From contig CAWCNJ010000008.1 of the NCBI GenBank assembly GCA_963796955.1, positions 1-64,000 of the forward strand: 64,000 nt of DNA. The letters run 5' to 3'. This DNA is from Endomicrobiales bacterium. GTDB taxonomy: Bacteria; Elusimicrobiota; Endomicrobiia; Endomicrobiales; JALOBY01. The notes under the pieces are model-generated. The model was not told where the DNA came from, ran no database searches, and saw nothing but the letters and a program-made list of their open reading frames with translations. A program made the position numbers and the translations under genes. This document shows positions 7,426 to 48,448 of the stretch, piece by piece. Numbering within the stretch: the stretch's first letter is position 1; every line of letters begins with the position of its first letter.

Positions 7426-8703
<1,278 letters not shown>

Positions 8704-31934: not shown

Positions 31935-32894
31935 ATGTGCTGTCGATATATGAAGAGCTTGTTTTTGTTAACATTTCTTGCTTCTTTTGCTTATGCCGGT
32001 GTGCCGGGTTCCGTTACCTATCAAGGCAGGCTGAAGGAGGGCGGAAGCCCGGTAGAGGGGACCAGGAAAATGCAATTTCATATTTTTAACGATGCATCCG
32101 TGGAAGTTTGGGGTACACCTGCTGACATCGCTGTACCGGTCGTTTCCGGAAGCTTTTCTGTTCAGATGTCTCCGGTCGTTGACTGGACAAGCAGCACCAG
32201 GTGGTATTTAGAGACATGGGTAGGGCAATTAAGCGCCGATAAGAAATTATCTCCCCGCGAAGAGATCACATCACAATTCTTTGCTCTTTACGCCCAGTCG
32301 GCTGAAAATTTAAAATCCAGCTCTACCGTAACGATCATTGCCGCAACTACGACTGTGACAGGCGCTTTCGCAATAAATGGTAATCTTACCGTTTCTGGCA
32401 GTAACAGTATTATTCCCGCTGGGTCAATTATAGCCTATGGAGGAACAACTGCTCCCACTGGTTGGTTTATTTGTGATGGATCTTCAAAAGATTCAACGTT
32501 ATACCATGATCTATACCTGGCTATCGGAAGCAATTTTGGTGGAAGCGGTAGTAATTTTAATCTTCCTGATCTGAGAGGTCGATTTATTCGAGGACAAGAT
32601 TCTGGTTCCGGACATGATCCAGATGCAGCATCTCGAACAGCAGGATTCGCGGGTGGCAACACAGGCGATCATGTTGGTTCATTACAAGATGACGCATTTA
32701 AGAGTCATGTTCATGATATTGTTGCTGGTCAGTCAATTATTGAAGGTGGATCATCTTGTGGAACAATCAGAGGTTATTATACTACAGCTCGAAATTATGT
32801 TTATATCCAAAATGCAGAATATGGTGTGCAGGCGTCTGGCGGTGCTGAAACCCGTCCAAAAAATGTTACCGTGAATTACATAATCAAATACTGA
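31935..32894 (+). CDS. Secreted fibre-like protein with phage tail-collar domain
   Basis: Signal peptide ending AYA; N-domain GVPGSVTYQGRL..SQFFA; collar motif PAGSIIAYGG..PTGWFICDG..FNLPDLRGRFIRG; HxH; ETRPKN..NYIIKY end. Confidence 0.8.
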   Translation: MCCRYMKSLFLLTFLASFAYAGVPGSVTYQGRLKEGGSPVEGTRKMQFHIFNDASVEVWGTPADIAVPVVSGSFSVQMSPVVDWTSSTRWYLETWVGQLSADKKLSPREEITSQFFALYAQSAENLKSSSTVTIIAATTTVTGAFAINGNLTVSGSNSIIPAGSIIAYGGTTAPTGWFICDGSSKDSTLYHDLYLAIGSNFGGSGSNFNLPDLRGRFIRGQDSGSGHDPDAASRTAGFAGGNTGDHVGSLQDDAFKSHVHDIVAGQSIIEGGSSCGTIRGYYTTARNYVYIQNAEYGVQASGGAETRPKNVTVNYIIKY

Positions 32895-32901
32895 GAAGAC
32901 T

Positions 32902-34056
32902 ATGAAGAAAGTTATTGTTTTGACTCTTGTTTTATTCATTAATGCTTCCGCTTATGCCTGGATATCTTCATACTCAGACGCGAGTGTTTCTATGGATTTA
33001 TATACATCTTTTGGACCGTTCACTATTTATGGCGCTACACTACCAATAACTGATATGGATTCTATGGTAGCCATGGTCAGTACCTCGACTTTAACGCACA
33101 CATCCGGTATCGAGATGGATCTTGGGTATTACGCTTTCACTGATTTTGGCGCGAATGCCACACCCGTTTTACTTGCCAAATGTCAAAGCGGATATTTTGT
33201 TAATGTACCGAATGAGGCGCCCGTTACATTTTCAGTTTACTATATTAATTCCAGCGGTGTGGAACCTCTGCCCGGGTATCCGTGTGTAAGTTTCTGGAAG
33301 GACGGAACCTCCTCTACAGTTTCTGTAGTTCTGGACAAGTTCAGCACCGATGCGACCGGCGCTCTTTACAAAAAGTCAGTCGCTATAGACCCCGGTGTAT
33401 ACTGCTACACCTACACCGTTAAAAATTCCCAATATGCCGGCGGCTATACCCTTGCCCAAAGTTCTTTTGTTGTAACAGGCCGGCCAGCAGGTGTAGCTGA
33501 TACAAGCCTTCCAGACGCAAAAGTTGTTACCAGCGGCAAAATACAACTATCATGGACTGTTAGTGATACACAACCCGTCTCATTTAAAGTTTATGCGGGT
33601 AAAGATCAAAATAATCTAACGCTTGTTTACACCGGCTCATTGCCAACCTGCCTATTAACTTCACTGGATGCCGGCAGCAATTACTACTGGCAGGTAGAAA
33701 CAATTAATCAGTATGGCGTTTCTTCAAGAAGCCCTATTCACAATTTCACCACCCTCGGCAAAATGACAAAATCATTTAACTACCCCAATCCCTTCAGCCC
33801 GCCGGGCCAACACACTAATTTCGTAGTTGATATGGCAGAAGCCGGCTCCGCCGAGGTTACCGTCTATTCAGAGTTCGGTGACAAAACCTGGAACCAATCC
33901 TTTAACAACCTGCCTATGGGACAAAATGAGCTGTCATATAACGGTACTGACGGCAATGGAAAGGTTCTATACAACGGAACATACGTCGCTATTATTAAAA
34001 AGCATTATTCGGGCCGCGAAGAACAAGACCACGTGCGTATAATGGTCGTTAAATAG
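32902..34056 (+). CDS. Secreted protein with Fn3-like domain and C-terminal T9SS-type-A/FlgD-Ig-like domain
   Basis: Signal peptide; LSW..FKVY..L..GSNYYWQV Fn3 pattern; C-terminal NYPNPF..VYSEFG..YNGTDGNG..NGTY..IMVVK. Confidence 0.72.
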   Translation: MKKVIVLTLVLFINASAYAWISSYSDASVSMDLYTSFGPFTIYGATLPITDMDSMVAMVSTSTLTHTSGIEMDLGYYAFTDFGANATPVLLAKCQSGYFVNVPNEAPVTFSVYYINSSGVEPLPGYPCVSFWKDGTSSTVSVVLDKFSTDATGALYKKSVAIDPGVYCYTYTVKNSQYAGGYTLAQSSFVVTGRPAGVADTSLPDAKVVTSGKIQLSWTVSDTQPVSFKVYAGKDQNNLTLVYTGSLPTCLLTSLDAGSNYYWQVETINQYGVSSRSPIHNFTTLGKMTKSFNYPNPFSPPGQHTNFVVDMAEAGSAEVTVYSEFGDKTWNQSFNNLPMGQNELSYNGTDGNGKVLYNGTYVAIIKKHYSGREEQDHVRIMVVK

Positions 34057-34064
34057 GGGTTAAA

Positions 34065-34991
34065 ATGCGCAAGAAAGTATCGTTAAAACTAATCGTGATA
34101 ATGTTTCTCGCTTCACTAGCATATGCTGGTGTGCCGGGCTCTATCACGTATCAAGGCAGATTAAAAGAAGGCGGAAGCCCTGTAACAGCTACCCGCATAA
34201 TGAAGTTTTTGATATACAAAGATAGTAAGGCAAGTCCTGAGTGGGTCACCACACCAGATATGTCTGTAAATGTCAGCTCCGGTATTTTTTCTGTTGAGCT
34301 AACCCCGTCTGTAGACTGGACGACAGGAACAGACTGGTATTTGGAAACGATGATAGGTATAACAACCCCGGACAAAACCCTGAGCCCCAAAGAGAAGATA
34401 ACTTCACAATTCTTTGCACTCCATTCAAAATCCTCCGAAGATATGGAACAATCTACGGGCAACTCGATACACTTTGCCATAGGTGGAAGCACAATTGCGA
34501 CAATTACTTCAACAGGAAATTTTGGCCTAACCCCACCGGGAGTTGTCGTTGCATACATGGGCGTAACCATACCAAACGGCTGGCTGTCATGCGATGGGTC
34601 AACTGTTACTGTGACTCAATACCTGGGTTTATTTAATGCCATTGGTTACACATATGGGGGAAGTGGCGCCAGTTTTAGTGTTCCTAATCTAAATGGTATG
34701 TTCTTGAGGGGAAGGGCCACTGACACAACTAACGATCCTGATGGTCCAAGATCTTTAGGTTCGAATCAAATTGACACTTTTCAAGGACATCATCACTCAC
34801 CAGCAATGAGCGTAAATGCTAATACGACTGGTGTGGGACCGAGCTATACTTTGTCGACCGCTACAGGAGGTGGTCCATGGGCTGGAATTCCAGCCCTTGA
34901 TCCGAGTCCAGATTTTATTAATGGTTCACCACGTACTGGATCCGAAACTCGCCCAAAAAACATGGCTGTAAATTATATTATTAAATACTGA
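34065..34991 (+). CDS. Second secreted tail-collar/fibre-like paralogue
   Basis: Same architecture as 31935: AYA-GVPGSITYQGRLKEGGSPV, ITSQFFA, PNGWLSCDG, PNLNGMFLRG, GHHH, ETRPKNMAVNYIIKY. Confidence 0.8.
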   Translation: MRKKVSLKLIVIMFLASLAYAGVPGSITYQGRLKEGGSPVTATRIMKFLIYKDSKASPEWVTTPDMSVNVSSGIFSVELTPSVDWTTGTDWYLETMIGITTPDKTLSPKEKITSQFFALHSKSSEDMEQSTGNSIHFAIGGSTIATITSTGNFGLTPPGVVVAYMGVTIPNGWLSCDGSTVTVTQYLGLFNAIGYTYGGSGASFSVPNLNGMFLRGRATDTTNDPDGPRSLGSNQIDTFQGHHHSPAMSVNANTTGVGPSYTLSTATGGGPWAGIPALDPSPDFINGSPRTGSETRPKNMAVNYIIKY

Positions 34992-35602: not shown

Positions 35603-35660
35603 GTTCAATAAGTGAACGGAGTCGTTGGCTTACCTTAACCTAAGTCGTTTAGGAGCGTTT

Positions 35661-36407
35661 GTGTTAAAAAGACCATATGGTTGGCAACCCGATTTCCCTG
35701 ATCAGAGAGATTTTCTGTTTTCAGAGATAGTGAAAATCTCAAAGGTTTTGCCAGAGTTGGTGGATTTGAGAAGAGAATGTTCAGCTGTTGAAGACCAGGG
35801 TCAACTAGGCAGCTGCACTGCCAACGCCCTTGCCGGCGCGCTGGAATTCCTGGAAAACCAGGAAAAGACAGCTTTTGTGGACAAAAGTCGCCTATTCATT
35901 TATTATAACGAACGTGCCATAGAGCATAAAGTTAGCTCTGATTCCGGCGCAATGATACGCGACGGTATAAAAACCCTTGCAACATTTGGGTGCTGTTCAG
36001 AAACCCTGTGGCCCTACAATATTTTGACATTTACTAATAAACCAACCGCCAAGTGTTACACTCAAGCAAAAGATCATAAAATTAATTCATACCACAGAAT
36101 ATGTTCGCTGGACGAGATGAAGGCGTGTCTCGCCTCCGGCTTCCCTTTTGTATTTGGTTTCACGGTTTATGAGAGTTTTGAATCCCAAACTGTTGCCAAA
36201 ACCGGCAAAGTAAATATGCCAAAAAGTTCTGAGCGTGCCATAGGCGGCCACGCAGTAATGGCGGTAGGCTATAATGAAAAACAAAAACGCTTTATAGTCC
36301 GCAATTCCTGGGGACCCAACTGGGGAATAGACGGCTATTTCACAATGCCTTACGCATACCTTGACAGCCGCAACCTCTCCGACGACTTTTGGACAATAAG
36401 GAAATAA
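35661..36407 (+). CDS. Papain-like C1 family cysteine peptidase
   Basis: DQGQLGSCTANA (catalytic Cys), GGHAV (His), VRNSWG (Asn); YGWQPDFPDQRD N-terminus. GTG 35661 with AGGAG RBS preferred over TTG 35625. Confidence 0.9.
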   Translation: MLKRPYGWQPDFPDQRDFLFSEIVKISKVLPELVDLRRECSAVEDQGQLGSCTANALAGALEFLENQEKTAFVDKSRLFIYYNERAIEHKVSSDSGAMIRDGIKTLATFGCCSETLWPYNILTFTNKPTAKCYTQAKDHKINSYHRICSLDEMKACLASGFPFVFGFTVYESFESQTVAKTGKVNMPKSSERAIGGHAVMAVGYNEKQKRFIVRNSWGPNWGIDGYFTMPYAYLDSRNLSDDFWTIRK

Positions 36408-36408
36408 A

Positions 36409-36930
36409 GTGGAAGTTACTGAGAAAGAGTTTGCAGTTATACAGGAAATTCATAAAAACGAGATGCCGGATCAGCGCACTATTGCGCATAAAACCGGCAT
36501 TTCTCTAGGTATGACGAATTTGATCATTCAGCGTCTTATCGAGCGCGGATACATAAAAGCCCGCCAGTTGAACCGTAAAAAGATACAGTATATTCTTACC
36601 CCGGAAGGCTTCGCCGAGAAAGCCCGTAAATCCTATGCCTTTACCCTTAAAACCGTCAATCATTTAAGAACTATCAAACATATCCTTCATGAAGTAATAG
36701 AAGCAGGTATACGGGACGGCTACACCACATTTTCATTCTCAGGAAATAGTGAAGTAAATGAGCTTGCGGAGCTTATTGCGATGCGGCTGAAATCAAAAAA
36801 CATACAATTCAGATTTGATAAAGAAACAAATATTAATGCCGATTCGTCGAGTCTGATCATGGAATCAACTGACAATAGAAAAAACGAAATTGATCTTATG
36901 ACCTATCTGTCAGAGCAGGGGATTGCTTAG
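36409..36930 (+). CDS. MarR-like winged-HTH regulator (EPS-locus-associated type)
   Basis: QRTIAHKTGISLGMTNLIIQRLIERGYIK..YILTPEGFAEK. Confidence 0.8.
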   Translation: MEVTEKEFAVIQEIHKNEMPDQRTIAHKTGISLGMTNLIIQRLIERGYIKARQLNRKKIQYILTPEGFAEKARKSYAFTLKTVNHLRTIKHILHEVIEAGIRDGYTTFSFSGNSEVNELAELIAMRLKSKNIQFRFDKETNINADSSSLIMESTDNRKNEIDLMTYLSEQGIA

Positions 36931-36946
36931 TAAAAAGGATACGCAA

Positions 36947-37723
36947 ATGAAAGTCGTAATTCTTGCAGGTGGAATGGGAACAAGGATCAGTGAAGAAACA
37001 AGTGTTATCCCAAAGCCTATGATAGAGATAGGCGGCAAGCCGATCCTGTGGCACATTCTTAAGATCTATTCACACTATGGCTTCAACGATTTCGTAATTT
37101 GTCTGGGCTATAAGTCGTATGTTGTCAAAGAATATTTCTCTCATTATTTCCTTCATATGAGCGATGTAACTATTGATATGGCAAACAATCAAACTGAGAT
37201 CCATTCTTCCGCTTCTGAGCCCTGGAAGATAACTTTGGTTGATACCGGCAATGAAACAATGACAGGCGGCAGGATCAAAAGAATACAAAAATACCTGAAC
37301 AATGAGCCTTTCATGCTCACCTATGGTGACGGCGTAGCTGATGTAAATATAAAAGATCTGGTAGCAAAACATACAAATTCAAAAAAACTTGCGACATTGA
37401 CGACCGTAAAGGACGCTGGAAGGTTTGGCGTTATTGATATCGGTGTGGACGATTCCGTAAGGTCTTTCCTTGAAAAACCGGTAAGCGAAGGCTCATCCAT
37501 AAATGCTGGGTTCTTCGTGCTTGAGCCTAAAGTGCTCGATTATATCGACCAGGGAGATTCCTCGATCTGGGAGAGAAAACCTCTTGAAAAGCTCGCGAAG
37601 GACGGACAATTGAATGCCTACAGGCACACAGGGTTCTGGAAGCCTATGGATACCCTTAGGGACAAGGTTGAACTCGAAAAACTATGGCAGAATAATAACG
37701 CCCCATGGAAGGTATGGAAATGA
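36947..37723 (+). CDS. rfbF: Glucose-1-phosphate cytidylyltransferase
   Basis: MKVVILAGGMGTRISEET..PKPMIEIGGKPILWH, TMTGGRIKR, LTYGDG, GFWKPMDTLRD, APWKVW. Confidence 0.95.
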   Translation: MKVVILAGGMGTRISEETSVIPKPMIEIGGKPILWHILKIYSHYGFNDFVICLGYKSYVVKEYFSHYFLHMSDVTIDMANNQTEIHSSASEPWKITLVDTGNETMTGGRIKRIQKYLNNEPFMLTYGDGVADVNIKDLVAKHTNSKKLATLTTVKDAGRFGVIDIGVDDSVRSFLEKPVSEGSSINAGFFVLEPKVLDYIDQGDSSIWERKPLEKLAKDGQLNAYRHTGFWKPMDTLRDKVELEKLWQNNNAPWKVWK

Positions 37724-38697
37724 ACAGGTTCTGGAAAAACAAAAGCGTTTTGATCACCGGCGGTGAAGGTTTCCTTGGAAGCAACCTTACAAGAAGGATG
37801 ATCGGTCTCGGAGCAAAAGTTGTCGTTATTGACCCTCTGGTTAAGCGTAAACAGACATTGTTTACTAAAGATGACTACAGTAAATTTACATCGGTCAAGG
37901 GGTCAGTGGCAAATTACGAACTAATCAGCAAAGTGCTGAAAAATAACCGAGTCGAGTATGTTTTTCATCTTGGCGCTGAGGCCATTGTCGGCAAATGTAA
38001 TGCTGACCCGCTGGGATGTTTTTCTTCAAATATTGAAGGTACCTGGAAGCTGCTCGAGGCCTGCAGGCAATATGGGAAAGTCAAGTCTATTGTCGTAGCC
38101 TCCAGCGATAAAGCCTATGGCAGTCATAAGGTCCTTCCTTATAAGGAAGAAGCCCCGTTGATAGGCAATCATCCGTATGATGTTTCTAAGAGCTGCGCGG
38201 ACTTGATATGTTATACATATTTTCATACATACGGCCTTCCTGTCTCAGTTACCCGGTGCGGCAATATTTACGGGCCCGGTGACTTCAATTTTTCCAGAAT
38301 AGTACCCGATGCGATTAGGTGTGCCATAACCGGCGGAACACTTTCGATCCGGAGCGACGGAAAATTTACTCGCGATTACGTTTACGTTGATGATATTGTT
38401 AATGGGTACATATTGATCGCTGAGCAAATGCTAAGTAAGAAACTTGCCGGCGAAGCTTTCAATTTTAGTGATGAAAACCCTATTACTGTGTTGGAATTTG
38501 TTAACAGGATATTTAAAGCTGCTGGCAGTGTTCCTGCGTACAAAGTCCTCAATACTGCCAAATATGAGATCAAGCACCAATATCTTGCTTCTGGAAAGGC
38601 CAGGAAGATACTTGGGTGGAAACCGGGAAACTCTTTGAAAACCGGTGTCAAGAACACGATTTCCTGGTATAAAACATATCTTAGCAGAGGGAAATAA
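37720..38697 (+). CDS. rfbG: CDP-glucose 4,6-dehydratase-like SDR
   Basis: FWKNKSVLITGGEGFLG, ASSDKAYG, PYDVSKSCAD, RCGNIYGPGD; ATGA-coupled to rfbF. Confidence 0.75.
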   Translation: MNRFWKNKSVLITGGEGFLGSNLTRRMIGLGAKVVVIDPLVKRKQTLFTKDDYSKFTSVKGSVANYELISKVLKNNRVEYVFHLGAEAIVGKCNADPLGCFSSNIEGTWKLLEACRQYGKVKSIVVASSDKAYGSHKVLPYKEEAPLIGNHPYDVSKSCADLICYTYFHTYGLPVSVTRCGNIYGPGDFNFSRIVPDAIRCAITGGTLSIRSDGKFTRDYVYVDDIVNGYILIAEQMLSKKLAGEAFNFSDENPITVLEFVNRIFKAAGSVPAYKVLNTAKYEIKHQYLASGKARKILGWKPGNSLKTGVKNTISWYKTYLSRGK

Positions 38698-39626
38698 TGG
38701 CTTTTATAAGCGTTGTCACACCTTGCTATAACGAAGAGGCAAATGTTGCCGGCCTTTACAAAGCTGTTAAGTCTGTATTCTCAGAACTTGAGGGTCTGAC
38801 TTATGAACATATCTTTATAGACAACTCCTCACGGGATAATACGGTACGTATCCTCAAAGATATTGCTAAAACCGATAAAACGTTGAAGATCATTGTAAAT
38901 TCTAGGAATTTTGGCCATATTCGGTCGCCTTACTACGCTCTTTTACAGGCCAATGGCGACGCTGCTGTACTTTTAGCATCTGATTTTCAAGACCCACCGG
39001 AACTTATTAAAGACTTTATCAAAAAATGGCAGGAAGGTTTCAGGATAGTAATTGGAGTTAAACATAAGAGCGAAGAAAACAAACTTATGTTCGCAGCGCG
39101 AAAGATCTATTATCATCTGATCTCCAGGATCTCTGATACCGAGCAGGTCAAAAATTTCACAGGTTTCGGTTTATACGATAAAAGTTTCGTAGATGTGTTG
39201 AAAAAGCTGGATGAACCATATCCATATTTCAGGGGATTGATCGCGGAATTGGGCCCGGAGCGAGCTGAGATCGAATTTACGCAGCCGAAAAGAAAAGTTG
39301 GCAAGACAAAGAATAATTTCTACACTCTTTATGATATCGCCATGCTAGGGTTGGTAAGTTACTCAAAACTTCCCTTGCGTATTGCAACATTCGTAGGATT
39401 CATTTCTTCTTTTATAAGTATTGGTGTGGCTTTTATATATCTTATTTACAAAATTTTATTTTGGAATCGATTTTCCGCTGGGTCCGCTCCCATCGCTATT
39501 GGGTTGTTCTTCTTCGCTTCGGTACAATTATTCTTCGTAGGCATTCTGGGGGAATACATCGGTGCGATCTATACACAAGTCAAGAACAGGCCATTGGTAG
39601 TAGAAAAAGAGCGAATTAATTTCTAA
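38697..39626 (+). CDS. GT2 polyprenyl-phosphate glycosyltransferase (GtrB/ArnC-like)
   Basis: VTPCYNEE, IDNSSRD, SRNFG, SDFQDPPELI, two C-terminal TMs, GEYIGAIY..RP. Confidence 0.85.
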   Translation: MAFISVVTPCYNEEANVAGLYKAVKSVFSELEGLTYEHIFIDNSSRDNTVRILKDIAKTDKTLKIIVNSRNFGHIRSPYYALLQANGDAAVLLASDFQDPPELIKDFIKKWQEGFRIVIGVKHKSEENKLMFAARKIYYHLISRISDTEQVKNFTGFGLYDKSFVDVLKKLDEPYPYFRGLIAELGPERAEIEFTQPKRKVGKTKNNFYTLYDIAMLGLVSYSKLPLRIATFVGFISSFISIGVAFIYLIYKILFWNRFSAGSAPIAIGLFFFASVQLFFVGILGEYIGAIYTQVKNRPLVVEKERINF

Positions 39627-39650
39627 ATTATTATTCGAGGGCAAAAGACC

Positions 39651-41456
39651 ATGAAAATTAGAGTTGCTGATTACATTACGCAAAAACTTCACGAAGCCGG
39701 TGCCGATTATGTGTTCATGATCACCGGCGGTATGATAATGCATTTGACGGATGCTCTTACTAAGAACAAGAAAATGAAATATATTTGCTTCCAGCATGAG
39801 CAGGCCGCCGCTATGGCTGCCGACGCATACGGGCGTTATACCGGCAAACTTGGGGTTGCCTATGTAACCGCGGGGCCGGGTGTTTTAAACACCATAACAG
39901 GCGTCGTTGGCGCTTATGTTGATTCGGCCCCATGCATTATCGTTGGCGGCCAATCTAAAGTTTCGCTGGCGAAAGTTGTCGGCCCAAGACAGTTCCCGTT
40001 ACAGGGTTACAATAATATACCTATATTCAAACATATCACTAAATACGCCGTAATGCTCGATGATCTGTCCAGAGTGAGGTATGAAGTAGAGAAATGCATC
40101 CACATAGCGCAACAGCCCAGGGTTGGCCCAGTCTATCTTGAATGCCCGGTAGATATACAGGGCGCGACCTTTGACCCTGATGAATGTGCCGGCTATGTGC
40201 CGCAAAACGATAAAGAGGCGGTAAATAAAAAGGCTTTGAACAAGCAGATAACAGCGGTTAAACAGGCTCTTCTAAATAGCCGGCGGCCATTGATCCTTGC
40301 TGGAGCAGGGGTCAGGCTTTCAGGTTGTATCGGCCAACTGCACAAATTTATCGAAAAAACTAACATTCCAATTGTCACATCCCGCCTAGGCATGGACCTT
40401 ATTGGACATGATCACCGTCTTTTTGTCGGAAGACCCGGCACCTACGGCGATCGCGCTGCCAATTTCGCCGTGCAGAAATGCGATCTTCTAATAGTTCTCG
40501 GCTGCAGAATGGGCATAGGGCTTGTTGGTTATGATTTCCAGAATTTTGCTCAATCTGCAAAAAAAGTTATGGTAGATGTTGACGAGGAAGAATTGAAAAA
40601 GCCTTCAGTTGTGCCTGATATAGCTATAAAGGCCGATGCCGGCGAATTCCTTGGTAAGTTGTCTGAACAGCTGAACGGTTACCGTAATAACAATACGCCA
40701 TGGGTCGAGAAAACTCAATATTGGAAGGAACATTACCCTGTAGACTTGCCGGAATACGCAAAAGAAAAACACGGTATCAACTCCTATCATTTTACCCGGG
40801 TATTCTCGGAAAGTATGCCCAAAGATAGTTTGTTCGTTGTTGACACCGGCTCGTGCTTCCACGTGTATGCCCAGGCATTTAAAGTAAAATATGGGCAGCG
40901 GCACATAATTACGGGCGGCCTTTCGACGATGGGCTATGTACCGGCGGTTATCGGTGTTGCGGCAATCGACAGAAAGAAAGATGTTTATTGCATAACTGGC
41001 GACGGTTCCGTACAGATGAATCTACAGGAACTACAGACTATAATCTACAACAAACTGCCCGTTAAGCTCATTATTTTCAATAACAATGGTTATTTGTTAA
41101 TACGTCATACCCAAATAAACTTCTGTGACGGCAGGCTTATCGGTGAAAGCCCGGAAACTGGTGTTGGTTTCCCTGATATGAAAAAGATAGCGGGCGCGTA
41201 TGGAATTAAATATATGCGAATAGCAAAGGCCTCTGAAATGGATGGCAAGATCAAGGAACTTAAGAAGATAAAAGGCCCCGTGATCTGCGAAGTAATGACA
41301 CCGAAAAACCAATTCCTTATTCCCAGGGTCGCTTCAAAGAAACTTGAAGATGGCCGGATGGTCTCAATGCCTTACGACGATATGTTCCCATTCATGCCCA
41401 GGGAAGAGTATCAAAGCAACCAAATACAGGATCAAGAGAACAAAAAAAATGGCTAA
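39651..41456 (+). CDS. ThDP-dependent acetolactate-synthase-like carboligase (YerE-like)
   Basis: HEQAAAMAADAY, TAGPG, GGLSTMGY, GDGSVQMNLQEL..NNGY ThDP motif; no small regulatory subunit adjacent; sits in a sugar locus. Confidence 0.85.
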   Translation: MKIRVADYITQKLHEAGADYVFMITGGMIMHLTDALTKNKKMKYICFQHEQAAAMAADAYGRYTGKLGVAYVTAGPGVLNTITGVVGAYVDSAPCIIVGGQSKVSLAKVVGPRQFPLQGYNNIPIFKHITKYAVMLDDLSRVRYEVEKCIHIAQQPRVGPVYLECPVDIQGATFDPDECAGYVPQNDKEAVNKKALNKQITAVKQALLNSRRPLILAGAGVRLSGCIGQLHKFIEKTNIPIVTSRLGMDLIGHDHRLFVGRPGTYGDRAANFAVQKCDLLIVLGCRMGIGLVGYDFQNFAQSAKKVMVDVDEEELKKPSVVPDIAIKADAGEFLGKLSEQLNGYRNNNTPWVEKTQYWKEHYPVDLPEYAKEKHGINSYHFTRVFSESMPKDSLFVVDTGSCFHVYAQAFKVKYGQRHIITGGLSTMGYVPAVIGVAAIDRKKDVYCITGDGSVQMNLQELQTIIYNKLPVKLIIFNNNGYLLIRHTQINFCDGRLIGESPETGVGFPDMKKIAGAYGIKYMRIAKASEMDGKIKELKKIKGPVICEVMTPKNQFLIPRVASKKLEDGRMVSMPYDDMFPFMPREEYQSNQIQDQENKKNG

Positions 41457-42333
41457 TAAAAAAATGAAGGTGGCAATACTTGGCAGCGGGTTGATAGGCA
41501 CCGACTTGTTGATAAAGATCCGGAGGTCAAAATACCTTGATTGTACGCTTTTTGTTGGCCGGAACCTGCAGTCCCAGGGGATGTCGAAGGCCGTGAGCCT
41601 TGGAGTGCCGGTATCTGACAGGAGTATCGAAGCTATTTCTGATAACCCGGAGAATTGCGAGCTGGTTTTCGACGCTACATCGGCGCATTTTCATCAAATC
41701 CACGCCCCGATCTTGAAAAAACTCGGGATAATGGCGATAGACATGACGCCGGCCCAGGTTGGCAGTATGTGTATACCAGCCGTTAACCTGCAAGAATGCC
41801 TCGGAAAAGATAATGTCAACATGGTAACCTGCGGCGGTCAGGCTTCAACCCCGATAGCATACGCGATAGGCCAGGTTCATAAAGATGTTGAGTATATAGA
41901 GGTAATTTCAACTATCGCTTCACGCAGCGCCGGGCCTGCCACGCGCGCGAACCTTGATGAGTATATTGAGACGACTGAGAGAGCCGTTAAAACTTTTTCC
42001 GGCGCCAGGAAGACAAAAGCGGTTCTGGTTTTAAATCCCGCTCAACCATGCATCAATATGCAGACAACCGTCTTCGCAAAAATAGCCAACCCCAAGATGG
42101 ATCAAATAAGCGCTGCCGTTAATGATATTGTGAAAAGAATACAAAAATATGTACCGGGCTATAATCTGGAAATCCCGCCGACCTTTGAGAACAACAGGGT
42201 AATAACAATGGTTCGCGTCCAGGGTATAGGAGACTATTTGCCCAGTTACGCGGGGAACCTTGACATAATTAACTGCGCGGCAGTCGCGACTGCTGAAGAG
42301 TACGCAAAATTAAAATACGGTATAAAAGATTAG
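41449..42333 (+). CDS. Acetaldehyde dehydrogenase (acylating), DmpF/MhpF family
   Basis: GSGLIGTDLL, FDATSA, DMTPA, NMVTCGGQAS, SAGPATRANLDEY, YAGNLDI; start set to ATG 41449. Confidence 0.93.
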   Translation: MANKKMKVAILGSGLIGTDLLIKIRRSKYLDCTLFVGRNLQSQGMSKAVSLGVPVSDRSIEAISDNPENCELVFDATSAHFHQIHAPILKKLGIMAIDMTPAQVGSMCIPAVNLQECLGKDNVNMVTCGGQASTPIAYAIGQVHKDVEYIEVISTIASRSAGPATRANLDEYIETTERAVKTFSGARKTKAVLVLNPAQPCINMQTTVFAKIANPKMDQISAAVNDIVKRIQKYVPGYNLEIPPTFENNRVITMVRVQGIGDYLPSYAGNLDIINCAAVATAEEYAKLKYGIKD

Positions 42334-42346
42334 CAGAGGGGCCTTA

Positions 42347-43357
42347 ATGAAAAATATTCTTATCACTGATCCGACATTAAGAGATGGTTCTCACGCTGTA
42401 GGGCATCAGCTTAGCGCGGCCCAGATAGCCACTTATTGTAAAGCCGCGGAAGCAGCCGGTATCCCGATAGTTGAGGTCGGACATGGCAATGGCCTCGGGG
42501 CGTCGTCCCTTCAGGTAGGCTTAAGCCTTATCGATGACGCACAGATGCTGAAAGTAGCGAGAGAAAACCTGAAAAAGAGCAAGCTCGAGATCTTTGTTAT
42601 TCCGGGCTTTGCGACTATAAACAAAGATTTAGAACCGGCGCTGGAGGCCGGTGTTGATGCGGTACGGGTTGCCTCTCATTGTACGGAGGCCGACCTGACC
42701 GAACGCCATATCAGTTTTGTGAGGAAAAAGGGGAAGCTCGCTTACGGGTGTCTGATGATGACACACATGGCTTCCAAAGAAACCCTTCTGGAAGAAGCAC
42801 GCAAAATGGAATCATACGGCGCTCAGGGTGTGATATTAATGGATTCAGCTGGCGCCTACCTGCCGATGGATGTACGGGAAAAAGTGGGTATACTCGCCGA
42901 AAACCTGAACATCCCTGTTGGCTTTCACGCGCACAATAATCTTAGTATGGCTGTTGCCAATTCAATAACGGCCGTAGAAGCCGGGGCTTCGATCCTGGAC
43001 GGTACAGCCAAAGGATTCGGCGCCGGAGCGGGTAATACCCCTATAGAGATCATGGTGGCTGTTCTGGGGAAGTTAGGCTACTCTACCGGCATAGACCTTT
43101 ATAAGATCCTTGATGCCAGTGATATCGCGGAAAAGGAACTGATGAAGATCCTCCCCAGTATTAAATCTGTCAGCGTAGTCAGCGGCCTTGCTGGAGTTTT
43201 TTCCGGCTTTTCCAAGCATGTCGAACGAGTTGCAAACGAATATAAACTTGATCCAAGAGACATTTTCTTTGAGCTTGGCAAACGAAAAGTTGTCGGTGGC
43301 CAGGAAGATATTATCGTTGAAGTAGCTATACAATTATCCCAAAAAGGGAGAAAATAA
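42347..43357 (+). CDS. 4-hydroxy-2-oxovalerate aldolase, DmpG/MhpE family
   Basis: DPTLRDGSH, EVGHGNGLG, HCTEAD, DSAG, GFHAHNNL, GAGAGN, VGGQED. Confidence 0.93.
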   Translation: MKNILITDPTLRDGSHAVGHQLSAAQIATYCKAAEAAGIPIVEVGHGNGLGASSLQVGLSLIDDAQMLKVARENLKKSKLEIFVIPGFATINKDLEPALEAGVDAVRVASHCTEADLTERHISFVRKKGKLAYGCLMMTHMASKETLLEEARKMESYGAQGVILMDSAGAYLPMDVREKVGILAENLNIPVGFHAHNNLSMAVANSITAVEAGASILDGTAKGFGAGAGNTPIEIMVAVLGKLGYSTGIDLYKILDASDIAEKELMKILPSIKSVSVVSGLAGVFSGFSKHVERVANEYKLDPRDIFFELGKRKVVGGQEDIIVEVAIQLSQKGRK

Positions 43358-44412
43358 TGCCAAAGCAGATAAACAACCTCATCATAAATGATTGTGAAGA
43401 AGCAGTAGGAAATTCACCGGAAATGCTGCAGGCGCTGAAAAATGAAACTATTTTCATATCCGGCGGCACAGGTTTCACGGGCACGTGGCTCGCTGAATTA
43501 ATATCTTTTTTGAACGACCGGCATTCGTTCAATACAAAAATGATACTTCTGTCAGAGCACGCCTTCAGTTTTAGTTCCAAAGCCCCTCATTTAGCCACAC
43601 GTAAGGATATCACATTAATAGAAAAGGATGTTCGGAACCTGGTTGAGATCTCTCAGGAAGTTACGTATATAATACACGCTGCCGCTAATCCGGACAACCG
43701 TCAGCATTCGTCAGACCCTCTTAAGGTTATGGACGTGATATCTAAGGGGACGAACACGGTACTAAACGCCGCCAGCCGCCTGCCGAATATAAAAAAGATA
43801 CTTAATGTCAGTTCAGGGCTTATATACGGTCCTCAGCCGCAGGAGTTGGAACGGATCCCCGAAATAGCGCATGGCGGGCCGGATTGTGATTCAATACTCT
43901 CCATATACTCCGAAGCAAAGAGATACGCCGAAACTCTTTGCACAGCCTTCAGGAACCAATTCAAACTGCCAATAGTCACCGCGAGGCCTTTTGCGTTTAT
44001 CGGCCCCTACCAGCTTTTGGATAAACCGTGGGCAATTAACAATTTCATCAGGGACAGCTTGCTGGGCGGACCTATCAGGATACTGGGTGATGAAAATACG
44101 GTCAGAAGCTATATGTACGCGAGCGATATGGCTGTTTGGCTCCTGAAAATGCTTGTTGATGGTAAACCAGGACAGGCTTATAATGTTGGTAGCCCTGACG
44201 GGATCACACTTAAACAGCTATCTGAACGCATAGCCTCCCATTTTCCAGCAGCGCCGGAGATAGTCCACGTGCCTGTAAGCAGGTCGGTCTCAAGATCCAG
44301 GTTCGTGCCGGATGTAGCTCTGGCTCGGAATTCTCTGGGTTTGACCGTTAAGGTGGATATTGACGAAGCCATAAAGCGTACGATGATGTGGCACAAGTCC
44401 AAGGGAATATAG
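43357..44412 (+). CDS. NAD-dependent epimerase/dehydratase/reductase (extended SDR)
   Basis: GGTGFTG, SSG, YSEAK (YxxxK), RPFAFIGP, RSYMY. Confidence 0.85.
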   Translation: MPKQINNLIINDCEEAVGNSPEMLQALKNETIFISGGTGFTGTWLAELISFLNDRHSFNTKMILLSEHAFSFSSKAPHLATRKDITLIEKDVRNLVEISQEVTYIIHAAANPDNRQHSSDPLKVMDVISKGTNTVLNAASRLPNIKKILNVSSGLIYGPQPQELERIPEIAHGGPDCDSILSIYSEAKRYAETLCTAFRNQFKLPIVTARPFAFIGPYQLLDKPWAINNFIRDSLLGGPIRILGDENTVRSYMYASDMAVWLLKMLVDGKPGQAYNVGSPDGITLKQLSERIASHFPAAPEIVHVPVSRSVSRSRFVPDVALARNSLGLTVKVDIDEAIKRTMMWHKSKGI

Positions 44413-44420
44413 CTCTCTAA

Positions 44421-45356
44421 ATGAAAAATGAGAAAAGAATTTTTATAACCGGAGCCCGCGGCTTCATAGGAAGATCATTAGTCGAATACTATAGCGCTTA
44501 CTGCTCCGATAAATACGATTTGTTCTTTCCCTATCATAACGAACTGGAACTTACAAATCCTATCGCTGTCAGGGAGTATATTAAAGAGAACAATATAGAC
44601 ACGGTCATTCATACCGCGAACGTCGGTGGGTCTAGAAAAACCCAGTACGACACAGGCAAAACCGACGTTGTTACAGCGAACCTTGGGATGTTTTTTAATA
44701 TTGTCCGATGCAGTGATCTGGTAAAGAAAATTATTTATTACGGTAGCGGCGCGGAATACTCCTGTCTTAATTATGTGCCATCAATGGTTGAAGGCTATTT
44801 TGATACTTTTGTTCCTTCCGATTCGTATGGGTTTTCAAAATATGTTTGTTCGAAATACGCTGAAAAAAACAATAAGATAACGAATCTGAGGCTTTTCGGC
44901 GTTTTCGGGAAGAATGAGGACCATTCCATCCGGTTCATATCAAATGCTATTTTGAAAAACTTATTCGGACTACCCATTGTTGTTAATCAAAACGTGCGCT
45001 TTGATTACCTTTATATAGACGACCTTGCTCGAATAACTATGCATTTCATAGAGAATGACAGTAAATGCAATGTCTTTAATACGTGTACGGGTAATCCTAT
45101 CGACCTGGTTACGATCGCGGAAATGATAAATTCTATTAGCGATAACAAGTCTGCCATTATTGTCAAGAATCAGGGAATGAACAGGGAATACAGCGGTGAT
45201 AACAGCAGGCTTGCGGAAGAACTGGGCAAATTCAATTTCACATCCATGGAGAAGGCGCTCAAAGAATTGTACGGCTACTTCAAACTCAATTTAGATAAGT
45301 TCGATAAAAAGATATTCACTGACGATGAATATATTAAATACTGTAAGAAATGCTGA
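44421..45356 (+). CDS. NAD-dependent epimerase/reductase (extended SDR)
   Basis: GARGFIG, GSGAEY, YGFSK (YxxxK), LRLFGVFG, FDYLYIDDL. Confidence 0.85.
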   Translation: MKNEKRIFITGARGFIGRSLVEYYSAYCSDKYDLFFPYHNELELTNPIAVREYIKENNIDTVIHTANVGGSRKTQYDTGKTDVVTANLGMFFNIVRCSDLVKKIIYYGSGAEYSCLNYVPSMVEGYFDTFVPSDSYGFSKYVCSKYAEKNNKITNLRLFGVFGKNEDHSIRFISNAILKNLFGLPIVVNQNVRFDYLYIDDLARITMHFIENDSKCNVFNTCTGNPIDLVTIAEMINSISDNKSAIIVKNQGMNREYSGDNSRLAEELGKFNFTSMEKALKELYGYFKLNLDKFDKKIFTDDEYIKYCKKC

Positions 45357-45445
45357 AGATCGACCAGTTTCGTATTTTAAGAATCAAAAATCTGTTTCTT
45401 CGTTCATGGCTCCATTCTTGGCAGGTTTTCAGCCTGTAATCTGAT

Positions 45446-47113
45446 GTGTTGTTGATTATTCAAAGGATGTCTTTAATGCATTTACTCTCGATTCTCATGT
45501 GGTTCATTGTCTTACTTGTTTCCGTCAAAGTTATCAGAGAGAATCGATATCTGTTTACGGCTGACAATGCGCAAATTAATAAATTCATGCTTATACCAGT
45601 ATCCTTGTTCGTAACCTGTTCTCTTTATTACTTGTACCTGCATATTTACTACATACCGGGTCGTGATACTTCATATGCTGTGTTTCTTGCTCCAAGATTT
45701 TATGGTTCAATGAATGATATGCCATCTGCTATCTTCAGTCAGTGGAAGGAATTGTCCGTGATTTTTCCCGCTCTTATGATAATTATCAGTTGTGCTTTCT
45801 GGTCAGGGCTGATTAAGAATATCTCTTTTAAGAGCTTCCTGGTCTTTATATATTTCTCAGCGCTTTTGTCTGAATTTTTATTTGTCTTTTTTACCGGGCA
45901 CGGGATCCAGCATATTGCAATGCAGGCTAGCTCTATAAATAATGGTATTTGGTATTCGATCACGTTATTGCAAAGCCAATTCGCGGGAATGCATGATTTG
46001 GATAAATTGAGATACATTTTCCAGGTTCTATGTGCTAATTATTCTCCCTACACGATCCCCGGGACCACACATCCCGCAGGTATGTTCATTATAACATTCG
46101 CGATACATAAGATGTCTTATTTACTCGCAATGGATCTCTTTCATGATATTCGCTTTATGCAATACTTTTGGGGATTTATTGTGTCTGCTGTTGGTACACT
46201 GATTATTCCCGTTACAATGCTTGTAGCGCGAGAACTTTACAATGAAAAATCTGCGCGGTTAACAGGGATCATGATGATCGCCGTTCCGTCAGTGTGTATG
46301 CATTTTTGTTCTGTGATAGATGTTGTTGCATCTTTCTTCATAGCAGCGGGAATTCTCGGGATGGTTTCATATTTAAAAAATATTGGTAAGTCGAAAAATA
46401 GTAAAAGTCTCAGGTCTTTCGTATACGGGTTGGCCGCGGGTACCTCTTTCACACTTGCCGCACAGATAACATTCGGACATGCTATTCCTATTTTTGCCTT
46501 ATTGGCGGCTTTCATTTATATGTCTTGGGGGACAGGTACGAGAAGACTACTTGTTTTTTTGAGTGGGCTGATAATACCGGCAATGTTGTATTTTGTATTT
46601 GAGTATTATATAAGCAACGGAAAACTGTTCTACATTGTCAGAGCTTTTACTATAACAAAAATCGTCGAGACCGGGCTTGAAGGATTCCGTCCTTACCCTG
46701 TGTCTCAAATCGCCAATTTCATCGTAATGTTCATAATGGGTGGGATCTTGTTCCTGCCGGTGCTTTTCCACACTACTATTTCCTTTTTTTCTCAGCTAAT
46801 TATGCATTTCAAAAATCGCGTTACTATCATAAACAATAAACAACGGATCAAAAATTTCCTGACAGCTGCAACATTTATAATGTTCGTAATGCTCGCCAGT
46901 CAGAAAACGGTACGATTAGAGACGGAGAGAACATGGCACTGGTTCTTCGTTCCGGTTTGGATGTTGTCGTCCGTTTTCTTTAACAGCATTTATGAAACAT
47001 TTAGGCGTTTGTTCAATATTGAAAAAGATACACTTTATCCGGCGTATTTTTTCGTTTGCTTTCAAATGGTACTCACGGTGGTTCTGGCAATGTGCATTCA
47101 AGATTACTATTAA
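45446..47113 (+). CDS. Polytopic membrane protein, possible GT-C-fold glycosyltransferase
   Basis: 555 aa with many hydrophobic segments; loop motif THPAG and C-terminal ETERTW resemble GT-C membrane proteins; start uncertain. Confidence 0.55.
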   Translation: MLLIIQRMSLMHLLSILMWFIVLLVSVKVIRENRYLFTADNAQINKFMLIPVSLFVTCSLYYLYLHIYYIPGRDTSYAVFLAPRFYGSMNDMPSAIFSQWKELSVIFPALMIIISCAFWSGLIKNISFKSFLVFIYFSALLSEFLFVFFTGHGIQHIAMQASSINNGIWYSITLLQSQFAGMHDLDKLRYIFQVLCANYSPYTIPGTTHPAGMFIITFAIHKMSYLLAMDLFHDIRFMQYFWGFIVSAVGTLIIPVTMLVARELYNEKSARLTGIMMIAVPSVCMHFCSVIDVVASFFIAAGILGMVSYLKNIGKSKNSKSLRSFVYGLAAGTSFTLAAQITFGHAIPIFALLAAFIYMSWGTGTRRLLVFLSGLIIPAMLYFVFEYYISNGKLFYIVRAFTITKIVETGLEGFRPYPVSQIANFIVMFIMGGILFLPVLFHTTISFFSQLIMHFKNRVTIINNKQRIKNFLTAATFIMFVMLASQKTVRLETERTWHWFFVPVWMLSSVFFNSIYETFRRLFNIEKDTLYPAYFFVCFQMVLTVVLAMCIQDYY

Positions 47114-47131
47114 TAGCTAAGGAGAGAAAAC

Positions 47132-48448
47132 ATGATTTTTGAAAACAAATTGAGATCGGAGATCCTGAGTAAGGTTGTTAGCTATTATAAAAAAACTAGA
47201 AAAGCTGATAGATTCATTCCCGGCAAAGATTATATTAACTACGCTGGAAGAGTTTATGACGATAAAGAATTGGTCAACCTGGTCGACTCGTCCCTTGATT
47301 TCTGGCTTACTACGGGAAGATATGCACAAGAGTTCGAAAAAAGACTTTCTGAATTCATTGGCGCTAACTACAGTCTTCTAACCAATTCGGGTTCATCGGC
47401 AAATCTCTTGGCAGTGACTGCCTTAACATCTCCGTTGCTAAAGGAACGGCGTCTTAAACCTGGCGATGAAGTGATCACAACCGCTTGCGGCTTTCCTACA
47501 ACATTAAATCCTATAATACAGAATAATGCTGTTCCTGTATTTGTTGATATAGAACTCGGCACTTATAACATAGACGTCAAGAAGCTGCAAAAAGCGATCA
47601 CAAATAAGACAAAAGCTGTCGTAGTGGCACATACCCTCGGGAACCCTGTGAATATCGACGCTATAACCAAGATCTGCGATAAATATAAGCTGTGGTACAT
47701 AGAAGATAATTGCGATGCACTTGGATCTAGATACAGAGGGAAATATACAGGAACATTCGGGCATATCGCCACCTGCAGTTTCTATCCTGCCCATCACATT
47801 ACGATGGGAGAGGGCGGCGCGCTTCTGACAAACGATCCGCTGCTTCGCCGTATCATCATGTCGTTCAGGGACTGGGGCAGGGACTGCTGGTGTGAGGGGG
47901 GGCGCGACAATACATGCAATAACAGGTTCACTCAACAATTTGGCGAACTACCATTGGGCTATGATCACAAGTATGTCTACTCGCATATAGGATACAACCT
48001 GAAGGTAACTGATATGCAGGCCGCTATCGGTTGTGCCCAGATGAATAAACTGCCCAAGTTCATTAAGGCTAGGAAAGATAATTTTAACTTTTTAATGAAA
48101 AGCCTAGCGAAATACAGCAAATATCTTGTATTGCCTGAAGCAACGGATGGTTCTGACCCGAGCTGGTTTGGATTTACGATAATGGTGAAACCGGGTTGCC
48201 CGTTTTCAAGGGCTGATATAGTAAAATATCTTGAAGAGCACAAAGTAGCCACTAGAATGCTTTTCGGAGGTAATTTGACGAAGCAGCCTGCGTATCGTGA
48301 TATCAAATCAAGAATATCTGGCGGGTTGGTTAACACCGATATTGTTATGAATAACCTGTTTTGGATAGGGGTTTATCCAGGGATAACAAAAGATAAACTG
48401 TCATACATAAGTAAAACACTCGACAACTTTATGAGCAAATACACATGA
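47132..48448 (+). CDS. rfbH: CDP-4-keto-6-deoxyglucose 3-dehydratase (E1)
   Basis: WLTTGR, NSGSSANL, SFYPAHHITMGEGG (His in place of the aminotransferase Lys), WGRDCWC..DNTC Fe-S motif, YDHKY. Confidence 0.93.
   Translation: MIFENKLRSEILSKVVSYYKKTRKADRFIPGKDYINYAGRVYDDKELVNLVDSSLDFWLTTGRYAQEFEKRLSEFIGANYSLLTNSGSSANLLAVTALTSPLLKERRLKPGDEVITTACGFPTTLNPIIQNNAVPVFVDIELGTYNIDVKKLQKAITNKTKAVVVAHTLGNPVNIDAITKICDKYKLWYIEDNCDALGSRYRGKYTGTFGHIATCSFYPAHHITMGEGGALLTNDPLLRRIIMSFRDWGRDCWCEGGRDNTCNNRFTQQFGELPLGYDHKYVYSHIGYNLKVTDMQAAIGCAQMNKLPKFIKARKDNFNFLMKSLAKYSKYLVLPEATDGSDPSWFGFTIMVKPGCPFSRADIVKYLEEHKVATRMLFGGNLTKQPAYRDIKSRISGGLVNTDIVMNNLFWIGVYPGITKDKLSYISKTLDNFMSKYT

Follow-up and report, generated by a model that had tools for sequence, protein, structure and literature searches.

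The chemistry of erwiniose formation in Pectobacterium atrosepticum, with the proteins ErwE, ErwF, ErwI and ErwJ, has been published (Steitz et al. 2022; PMC9306805). In that work, a ketone analogue is coupled with 4-hydroxy-2-oxopentanoate by ErwE, which is selective for the R donor and does not accept pyruvate; the accessible part of the report contains no assays of ErwF, ErwI, ErwJ or the full reaction on the CDP-sugar. Donor range varies widely among YerE-like enzymes, and MyGE, a relative of ErwE, can be promiscuous and favour the opposite enantiomer. As to the aldolase, wild-type BphI is strictly (4S)-specific, the Y290F variant loses stereocontrol, and the L87W/Y290F and L87N/Y290F variants are (4R)-selective (reviewed in PMC3962088). 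Finally, a polyprenol route has been proposed for LOS sugars (PMC4403928).

Here, we describe a related cassette in a 64,000-nucleotide stretch of Endomicrobiales DNA (the window). To judge by its genes and their homologies, by protein folds and residues, and by patterns of co-occurrence, it likely yields a CDP-linked C10 sugar with the erwiniose skeleton, for which delivery to the surface on a lipid carrier is predicted. As a stand-in for the P. atrosepticum cluster we used an ErwE-bearing cluster, L206, whose ThDP protein, compared by eye, could not be told apart from the ErwE sequence given in the supplement of PMC9306805 and whose gene order is that tabulated for ECA1420-1432 (PMC6286560). 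In the synteny check against a Pectobacterium-type cluster, which the initial annotation had proposed, L206 matches the YerE-like ThDP enzyme and the DmpFG pair gene for gene.

Gene content and recurrence of the cassette

All genes named in the initial annotation were recovered by profile models and open reading frames where it had placed them, on the + strand. The cassette begins with rfbF/ddhA (36947..37723), encoding a glucose-1-phosphate cytidylyltransferase (TIGR02623, 422 bits, cut-off 300; 59% identity to L206 rfbF), and ends with rfbH/ddhC (47132..48448), encoding an E1 3-dehydrase (NF011936, 729 bits, cut-off 423; 54% identity to L206) that matches 3BCX (E 2e-167) and aligns with it at the PAHH and C-x-C-x7-C motifs. 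By homology, the CDP-4-keto-3,6-dideoxyglucose genes rfbF and rfbH (E1) that characterize an erwiniose-type cluster are both in place. Between them, a run of five genes encodes a YerE/ErwE-like ThDP carboligase (39651..41456; 41% identity to ErwE of L206), a DmpF/ErwJ-type acylating acetaldehyde dehydrogenase (41449..42333; TIGR03215, 390.7 bits, cut-off 282; 61%), a DmpG/ErwI-type aldolase (42347..43357; TIGR03217, 389.5 bits, cut-off 286; 63%) and two extended SDRs, SDR1 (43357..44412; 38%) and SDR2 (44421..45356). The intergenic gaps of -8, 13, -1 and 8 bases bear out the tight coupling noted earlier. The DmpF protein retains the NMVTCGGQA motif, and alignment of DmpG to 1NVM matched the catalytic Arg/His and metal-site motifs; a BphI-like aldolase thus adjoins a BphJ-like dehydrogenase, as homology has it, in the manner of an erwiniose cluster. 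Two genes, also on the + strand, had been overlooked, a GT2 (38697-39626) and a GT-C membrane protein (45446-47113), and many further transferases lie downstream of the cassette.

Using the window ThDP protein as the sole query, we retrieved 80 related loci. Both dmpF and dmpG were present in 76 of these, and rfbF, rfbG or rfbH lay within the fetched stretch in 70, so the grouping is not due to chance. Relatives of the cassette occur in many bacterial phyla and in archaea, which leaves its presence in this lineage, put forward as a novelty, a minor one.

The rfbG-like gene (37720..38697) likely encodes a CDP-glucose 4,6-dehydratase of a second subfamily. SSDK and YxxSK motifs can be read from its sequence, and this subfamily (19 of the 80 loci) and canonical RfbG (42 loci; 60 together) are nearly exclusive. 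Its score on the best model, TIGR02622, is 204.5 bits against a cut-off of 278, its best PDB matches are dTDP-glucose dehydratases, and identity to L206 rfbG is 29%; the sub-threshold score and the dTDP-type matches count against the proposed pathway. So does the lack of an E3/Fer2 match: rfbI, the E3 reductase gene, was not found in the cluster, nor was a Fer2 domain in the genome (81.5% complete). Since the E3 of L206 has a match in 1/80 cassette loci, the clade is mostly without this gene.

The carboligase, the aldolase and the handedness of the donor

The best PDB matches of the ThDP enzyme are 8RPH (1e-114) and 5AHK (1.7e-71), which we take to be JanthE and PpYerE, respectively; both rank ahead of AHAS. 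In the tree, the enzyme shares a clade with ErwE, in a subclade of its own, separate from nine IlvB rows (support 100), as the YerE-like assignment and the phylogenetic check proposed with it had anticipated. Database entries label the protein acetolactate synthase. An identity as anabolic AHAS large subunit (IlvB) was considered and rejected: identity to IlvB is 27-32%, TIGR00118, with a cut-off of 538, gives it 369 bits, the clade is separate, and no AHAS small-subunit gene adjoins the ThDP gene. We predict 4-hydroxy-2-oxopentanoate as the donor; the 41% identity to ErwE and the separate subclade count against this.

The source of that donor would be the neighbouring DmpFG pair. Both genes are single-copy in the genome, in which no catabolic partners were found. 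The reported lack of ring-cleavage genes in the window extends to the whole 81.5% complete genome, with 0 matches to PF00903 (ring-cleavage dioxygenase) and no tblastn match to E. coli mhpA-D. A biosynthetic role for DmpFG, as originally suggested, fits both the scheme of Steitz et al. (PMC9306805) and the gene set of L206, and the same two sources support an erwiniose-type skeleton.

Two residues of the aldolase bear on stereochemistry. In the alignment to 1NVM, Phe83 and Phe285 of the window enzyme occupy the positions of Leu87 and Tyr290 of BphI; the L206 aldolase has His and Phe there. Among 83 cassette aldolases, site 290 is Phe in all, and site 87 is His, Phe or Tyr in 79 and Leu in 4, while 66 of 71 control aldolases retain the Leu/Tyr pair. 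On this basis, we predict that with Phe83 and Phe285 the enzyme can form, or even prefers, the (4R) keto acid needed by an ErwE-type route. In a quick tree, the cassette aldolases form a clade apart from the catabolic ones (support 99), and this cassette clade also contains three aldolases from outside sugar clusters. Being confined to one clade, the signature counts as one evolutionary event; this single clade with its three outsiders, the differing residues at site 87 and the 4/83 with Leu all count against the signature reading.

Two explanations would assign these enzymes other roles. If DmpFG were catabolic, the ThDP gene could be a spare acetohydroxyacid synthase replacing the housekeeping ilvB (C4:386863-388598), which is frameshift-split in the assembly, and the name carried by the protein in databases would agree. 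This reading is already disfavoured, and we consider it extremely improbable: apart from the distance to IlvB and the missing small subunit described above, two genomes (G008 and G014) each hold an intact ilvB plus the cassette, neither hydratase nor dioxygenase was found in the 81.5% complete genome, and the Leu/Tyr pair of catabolic aldolases is lost. Alternatively, the ThDP enzyme might take pyruvate like YerE, giving a two-carbon branch of the yersiniose type, with DmpFG extending it later or serving another sugar. The modest identity to ErwE and the variable donor range of YerE-like enzymes are compatible with this, yet dmpF and dmpG follow the ThDP family in 76/80 loci and ErwE turns pyruvate down (PMC9306805), making it quite improbable.

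Predicted reduction of the side chain and route to the surface

In the pathway that we favour, that of an erwiniose-type sugar, RfbF, the RfbG-like enzyme and RfbH would convert glucose-1-phosphate to CDP-4-keto-3,6-dideoxyglucose; with no E3 gene found, RfbH would be supplied with electrons by a general ferredoxin or flavodoxin. DmpF would reduce acetyl-CoA to acetaldehyde, which DmpG would join to pyruvate to give the keto acid, with the (4R) form allowed or favoured. The ThDP enzyme would decarboxylate this acid, thereby pulling the reversible DmpFG pair forward, and place a 3-hydroxybutanoyl unit on C4. One SDR would then reduce the side-chain ketone, the other performing a redox step on the CDP-sugar.

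As to which SDR does what, SDR1 is by sequence orthologous to the unnamed gene that follows the aldolase of the erwiniose cluster (L206:12806-13861), with which it falls in one clade (support 100), and the SDR1 family is present in 50/80 loci. SDR2 represents one of four families that nearly exclude one another: 63 loci contain a member, and in 58 of them a single family is present, a figure that rises to 61 of 63 when three distant, separately branching genes are left out. SDR2 fills the slot occupied elsewhere by the ErwF family, and in one locus (L209) its family adjoins a YerE-like gene without dmpFG. We lean towards SDR2 as the likely side-chain ketoreductase, with SDR1 as a tentative second choice. 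No ErwF ortholog was found, SDR2 being closest at 21% identity and the ErwF-position protein having no tblastn match in the genome (E <= 1e-3); this counts against the main reading. The second SDR had been presented as the novelty of the locus and as a possible epimerase. L206 also has two SDRs, and no tyvelose epimerase chain is among the PDB matches of SDR1 (E <= 1e-10) or SDR2 (E <= 1e-5), leaving an epimerase role for either without support.

Because SDR2 replaces ErwF, the same cassette might make a stereoisomer of erwiniose or a further-modified form, for example one in which the carbinol at the first carbon of the side chain has the opposite configuration. The two reductases are of different families, among four that alternate in this slot, and epimeric pairs do exist, as in yersiniose A/B or the R. 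palustris sugar and caryophyllose. Unrelated reductases can nevertheless yield the same configuration, and if the true branch reductase is SDR1, which L206 has as well, erwiniose itself would be the product; we regard such a variant product as possible, if rather unlikely. Two SDRs where the published scheme requires one, and the numerous transferases downstream, could also mean that one of the two acts on C4 of the common keto intermediate as a reductase, so that a plain 3,6-dideoxyhexose arises alongside the branched sugar, with the GtrB/GT-C pair moving this or another sugar. That is improbable: the available part of the description of the erwiniose producer's polymer lists no plain 3,6-dideoxyhexose (PMC8657720), although L206 has two SDRs, and SDR2 is the sole listed SDR in 12 loci.

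The completed branched sugar would be loaded onto undecaprenyl phosphate by the GtrB-like enzyme and attached as a side group outside the cytoplasm by the GT-C protein, a route we hold to be reasonably probable. The GT2 (38697..39626), a predicted polyprenyl-phosphate glycosyltransferase of the GtrB/ArnC type, has sll0501 as its top PDB match (5EKP, E 1.9e-52), ArnC next, and two hydrophobic segments at its C-terminus; by these features it is a GtrB-type GT2 with the two C-terminal membrane segments of GtrA/B/C systems. The membrane protein (45446..47113; 545-555 aa) has a GT-C fold in the predicted model, again as in those systems, and is a predicted lipid-linked-sugar transferase. No Pfam model matches its family, for which one search gave 28 relatives. 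Since none of the 80 cassette loci has a homolog, its link to the branched sugar comes from its position and from one locus (L112) with a homolog plus a YerE-like gene. A GtrA-family gene occurs in 17 loci, all among the 30 with the GT2, and GtrA (PF04138) was not found in the window genome (81.5% complete). The missing GtrA and the absence of the GT-C protein from the 80 loci count against the lipid-carrier part.

Relation to described systems

The pathway being known, the cluster by itself is a further instance of it. We think it somewhat probable that the large sugar-cluster DmpG/ErwI clade, in bacteria and archaea, reversed its handedness at the two sites used by the BphI engineers and supplies (R)-4-hydroxy-2-oxopentanoate, the window adding a different reductase, a GtrB/GT-C route and an undescribed GT-C family. 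If true, the two-residue signature would fill a gap in the published scheme, where an S-specific aldolase family feeds an R-selective carboligase, and offer natural R-selective pyruvate aldolases for biocatalysis. It would also provide a simple rule by which dmpG genes of biosynthesis can be told from those of catabolism in genome annotation, where dmpFG and ThDP genes are currently assigned to the breakdown of aromatics and the synthesis of amino acids. A fixed SDR1 combined with a second position open to exchange, occupied by another SDR, a methyltransferase or an aminotransferase, points to a family of branched sugars yet to be described, and makes the choice of reductase for erwiniose a provisional one.

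Compared with catabolic BphI/BphJ and DmpG/DmpF (1NVM), the window pair belongs to the same families, both members scoring over cut-off, but the aldolase has Phe/Phe in place of the Leu87/Tyr290 pair enforcing (4S), and no meta-cleavage genes were found in the 81.5% complete genome. This natural pair parallels engineered BphI without being identical, site 87 being Phe, His or Tyr in nature and Trp or Asn in the variants. By description, the YerE/YerF pathway to yersiniose shares ThDP branching of CDP-4-keto-3,6-dideoxyglucose followed by reduction, but YerE takes pyruvate and needs no aldolase, whereas the cassette has one. GtrA/GtrB/GtrC side-branch glycosylation has in common the GtrB-type GT2, the GT-C fold protein and GtrA beside homologs, although no GtrA was detected in this genome; a further parallel to the GT2 is offered by DPM-like transferases from mycobacterial LOS clusters (PMC4403928). 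The erwiniose cluster L206 has rfbI (E3), hpcH, rfbG, ErwF and a short GT2 after wzx, whereas the window cassette lacks the first two, has another RfbG subfamily and the unrelated SDR2, and carries GtrB-like and GT-C transferases inside it; the carboligases fall in different subclades. Both share rfbF, rfbH, a 4,6-dehydratase, the ThDP carboligase, the dehydrogenase, the aldolase with Phe at 290 and the post-aldolase SDR. We regard the cassette as a probable variant of this known pathway, to which it adds a stereochemical signature open to test and, probably, delivery on a lipid carrier.

The cassette and its genomic setting

Ten genes lie on the plus strand in the order rfbF, rfbG-like, GT2, ThDP (a YerE/ErwE-like carboligase), dmpF (acylating acetaldehyde dehydrogenase), dmpG (aldolase), two extended SDRs (SDR1 and SDR2), a membrane protein, and rfbH. 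The run described in the initial annotation, with rfbF, the rfbG-like gene, and rfbH around ThDP, dmpF, dmpG, and two SDRs, is thus present, and its genes from ThDP to SDR2 are tightly coupled, with intergenic gaps of −8, 13, −1, and 8 bases. The cassette sits in a long glycan locus with rml genes, a wzx-like gene, two Wzy_C proteins, and many transferases. GC content is 0.39 to 0.49 for genes in the block versus 0.535 to 0.541 for two housekeeping genes, and the closest named homologs are from Elusimicrobiota. An Fn3 protein in the same glycan locus is flanked by two proteins that look secreted and carry a phage tail collar domain (window 31935-34991). Immediately upstream of rfbF are genes for a C1 peptidase of the papain family and a MarR EPS-type regulator (below cut-off; 35625-36930).

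Beyond the window, which was reported to lack ring-cleavage genes, neither a PF00903 protein nor homologs of E. coli mhpA-D were found in the genome (2.1 Mb, 81.5% complete). dmpF and dmpG are present there in one copy each; across the order, dmpG scored above cut-off in 4 of 61 genomes, this one included.

The ThDP enzyme and the erwiniose route

ErwE, ErwF, ErwI, and ErwJ of Pectobacterium atrosepticum have been described by Steitz et al. 2022 (PMC9306805). According to the portions of that paper available to us, ErwE couples 4-hydroxy-2-oxopentanoate with a ketone analogue, does not accept pyruvate, and is selective for the R donor; the assignments of ErwF, ErwI, and ErwJ are by homology. 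The earlier suspicion that the chemistry may not be new was well founded, as this route is published for erwiniose.

Searching a sample of 401 genomes with the window ThDP protein gave 17 matches, one of which was extended as locus L206. By eye, its ThDP protein does not differ from the ErwE sequence printed in the PMC9306805 supplement, and its gene order (rfbP, rfbI, F, G, H, hpcH, ThDP, SDR, nahO, nahM, SDR, rfbX, GT) is that of ECA1420-1432 as tabulated in the available part of PMC6286560. The suggested synteny comparison with Pectobacterium is provided by this ErwE-bearing locus, which shares its core genes with the window at 29 to 63% identity (RfbF 59, RfbG 29, RfbH 54, ThDP 41, DmpF 61, and DmpG 63%). 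L206 further carries a second, HpcH-type aldolase gene (7320-8102), unused in the erwiniose scheme as laid out in the available portions of PMC9306805; it had no match in the 80 loci of the best 80 of 164 ThDP relatives.

Could the ThDP gene instead be a spare acetohydroxyacid synthase, standing in for a broken ilvB while DmpFG serve catabolism? The housekeeping ilvB, between ilvD and ilvN/ilvC (contig C4, 386863-388598), does carry a frameshift near 387,690, beside a short T run, which may be an assembly error. However, two relatives carry an intact ilvB together with the cassette, and a quick tree of 34 proteins placed the window enzyme with ErwE and other YerE-like proteins (YerE-like sequences rather than YerE itself being included), in a subclade of its own and apart from nine IlvB rows (support 100). 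We consider the spare-synthase reading highly improbable. Within the reading as a branched-sugar pathway, a C2 branch or an epimer is possible as the product, and a plain dideoxyhexose as a side product.

An alignment search of the genome collection matched 164 ThDP relatives, and the best 80 of these were retained (L001-L080). By record title, Elusimicrobiota, cyanobacteria, Campylobacterota, Paenibacillus, Patescibacteria, methanogens, Altiarchaeia, and Micrarchaeota are among them. Such titles may misstate lineage: that of L066 reads Gammaproteobacteria, but the sample for its class is made up of genomes close to 1 Mb in size. Among the best 80 of 164, dmpF and dmpG occur together in 76 loci (all except L025, L062, L064, and L069), a ddh gene in 70, and an E3 match in one. 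In the 22-kb locus L078, there are three ThDP genes, and the second slot is represented by two SDR families. In L059, L061, L063, and L064, the ThDP gene is followed by a class I/II aminotransferase and a DegT-like gene, with a GNAT acetyltransferase in three, possibly an amino-branched variant.

A two-residue signature in the aldolase

In the available portions of a review by the BphI group (PMC3962088), BphI accepts only the (4S) keto acid; Y290F abolishes stereocontrol, and L87W/Y290F and L87N/Y290F accept only (4R). We located BphI sites 87 and 290 at Leu88 and Tyr291 of the 1NVM alignment, the sole offset fitting Leu87, Leu89, and Tyr290 together; window DmpG has Phe83 and Phe285 there. 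Eighty-three aldolases adjoin a ThDP gene of this kind: that of the window, 76 from L001-L080, and 6 from further genome loci, with 5 duplicate loci left out. All 83 have Phe at site 290, and site 87 is His in 44, Phe in 31, Tyr in 4, and Leu in 4. Of 71 control aldolases lacking such a neighbor, 66 have Leu/Tyr; 60 of the 71 were the highest HMM scorers in two lineages, with 1.5-kb flanks, and those on plasmids were picked by hand. The exceptions are two Phe/Phe, one His/Cys, and two Phe/His. All four PDB chains have Leu/Tyr. The aldolases of L206 and L207, found after the tally, are His/Phe.

In a quick tree (81 of 154 rows), one clade (support 99) unites the cassette enzymes with three of the control exceptions; the signature thus reflects a single origin rather than 83 events. 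As a prediction from sequence, the two-residue signature would account for the supply of the R donor by an aldolase of the catabolic type. The Y290F change by itself would leave the aldolase non-selective, which would suffice for the pathway because ErwE selects R. We did not find this link in print in a search covering few subscription papers.

Same-clade aldolases also occur outside sugar clusters (L179:7341-13782, L097, and L098:8735-13260), in Streptomyces plasmids (Phe/Phe) and Leisingera (His/Cys). Their neighbors, in L179 a KAS III, an acyl carrier protein, and a CoA ester lyase, and in Leisingera an ATP-grasp protein and an aminotransferase, suggest small-molecule biosynthesis. Very divergent DmpG-like proteins with Phe/His were seen in L105, where the gene adjoins DegT-like genes, and L106, in genomes of about 1 Mb.

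The two SDRs and the relation to the erwiniose cluster

The SDR1 family is present in 50 of the best 80 of 164 loci (49 by identity rule plus L054, reassigned from the tree), where its gene mostly follows dmpG directly; within one ThDP clade, 50 of the 58 rows have it. L206 has a member as well, following its aldolase gene (support 100), and so does L207, next to a ThDP enzyme of a third type. The second slot is occupied by one of four families: SDR2, an SDR1 paralog, a family that frequently accompanies an FkbM methyltransferase, or the ErwF-position family. At least one of them is found in 63 of the best 80 of 164 loci and exactly one in 58, or 61 if three distant genes that branch separately are set aside; the other 17 loci have none, some of them ending at contig ends. 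The FkbM pairing (L005, L012, L019, L021, L022, L034, L039, L042, and L207) suggests O-methylated branched sugars.

With the second slot filled in 63 of 80 loci and two SDRs in L206, two SDRs are normal for the cassette, erwiniose cluster included; the second SDR is thus not the novelty proposed in the initial annotation. As to function, these distributions favor SDR2 as the side-chain ketoreductase: in 12 loci no listed SDR other than SDR2 occurs, and in L209 it is found close to a YerE-like gene in a setting that lacks dmpFG. SDR1 stays a candidate, being conserved with the erwiniose producer.

The window cassette and the erwiniose cluster share a common core, and the window cassette is a variant of this known pathway. 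It differs from the erwiniose cluster in having another reductase, in lacking E3, and in probably handing its sugar over via GtrB/GT-C.
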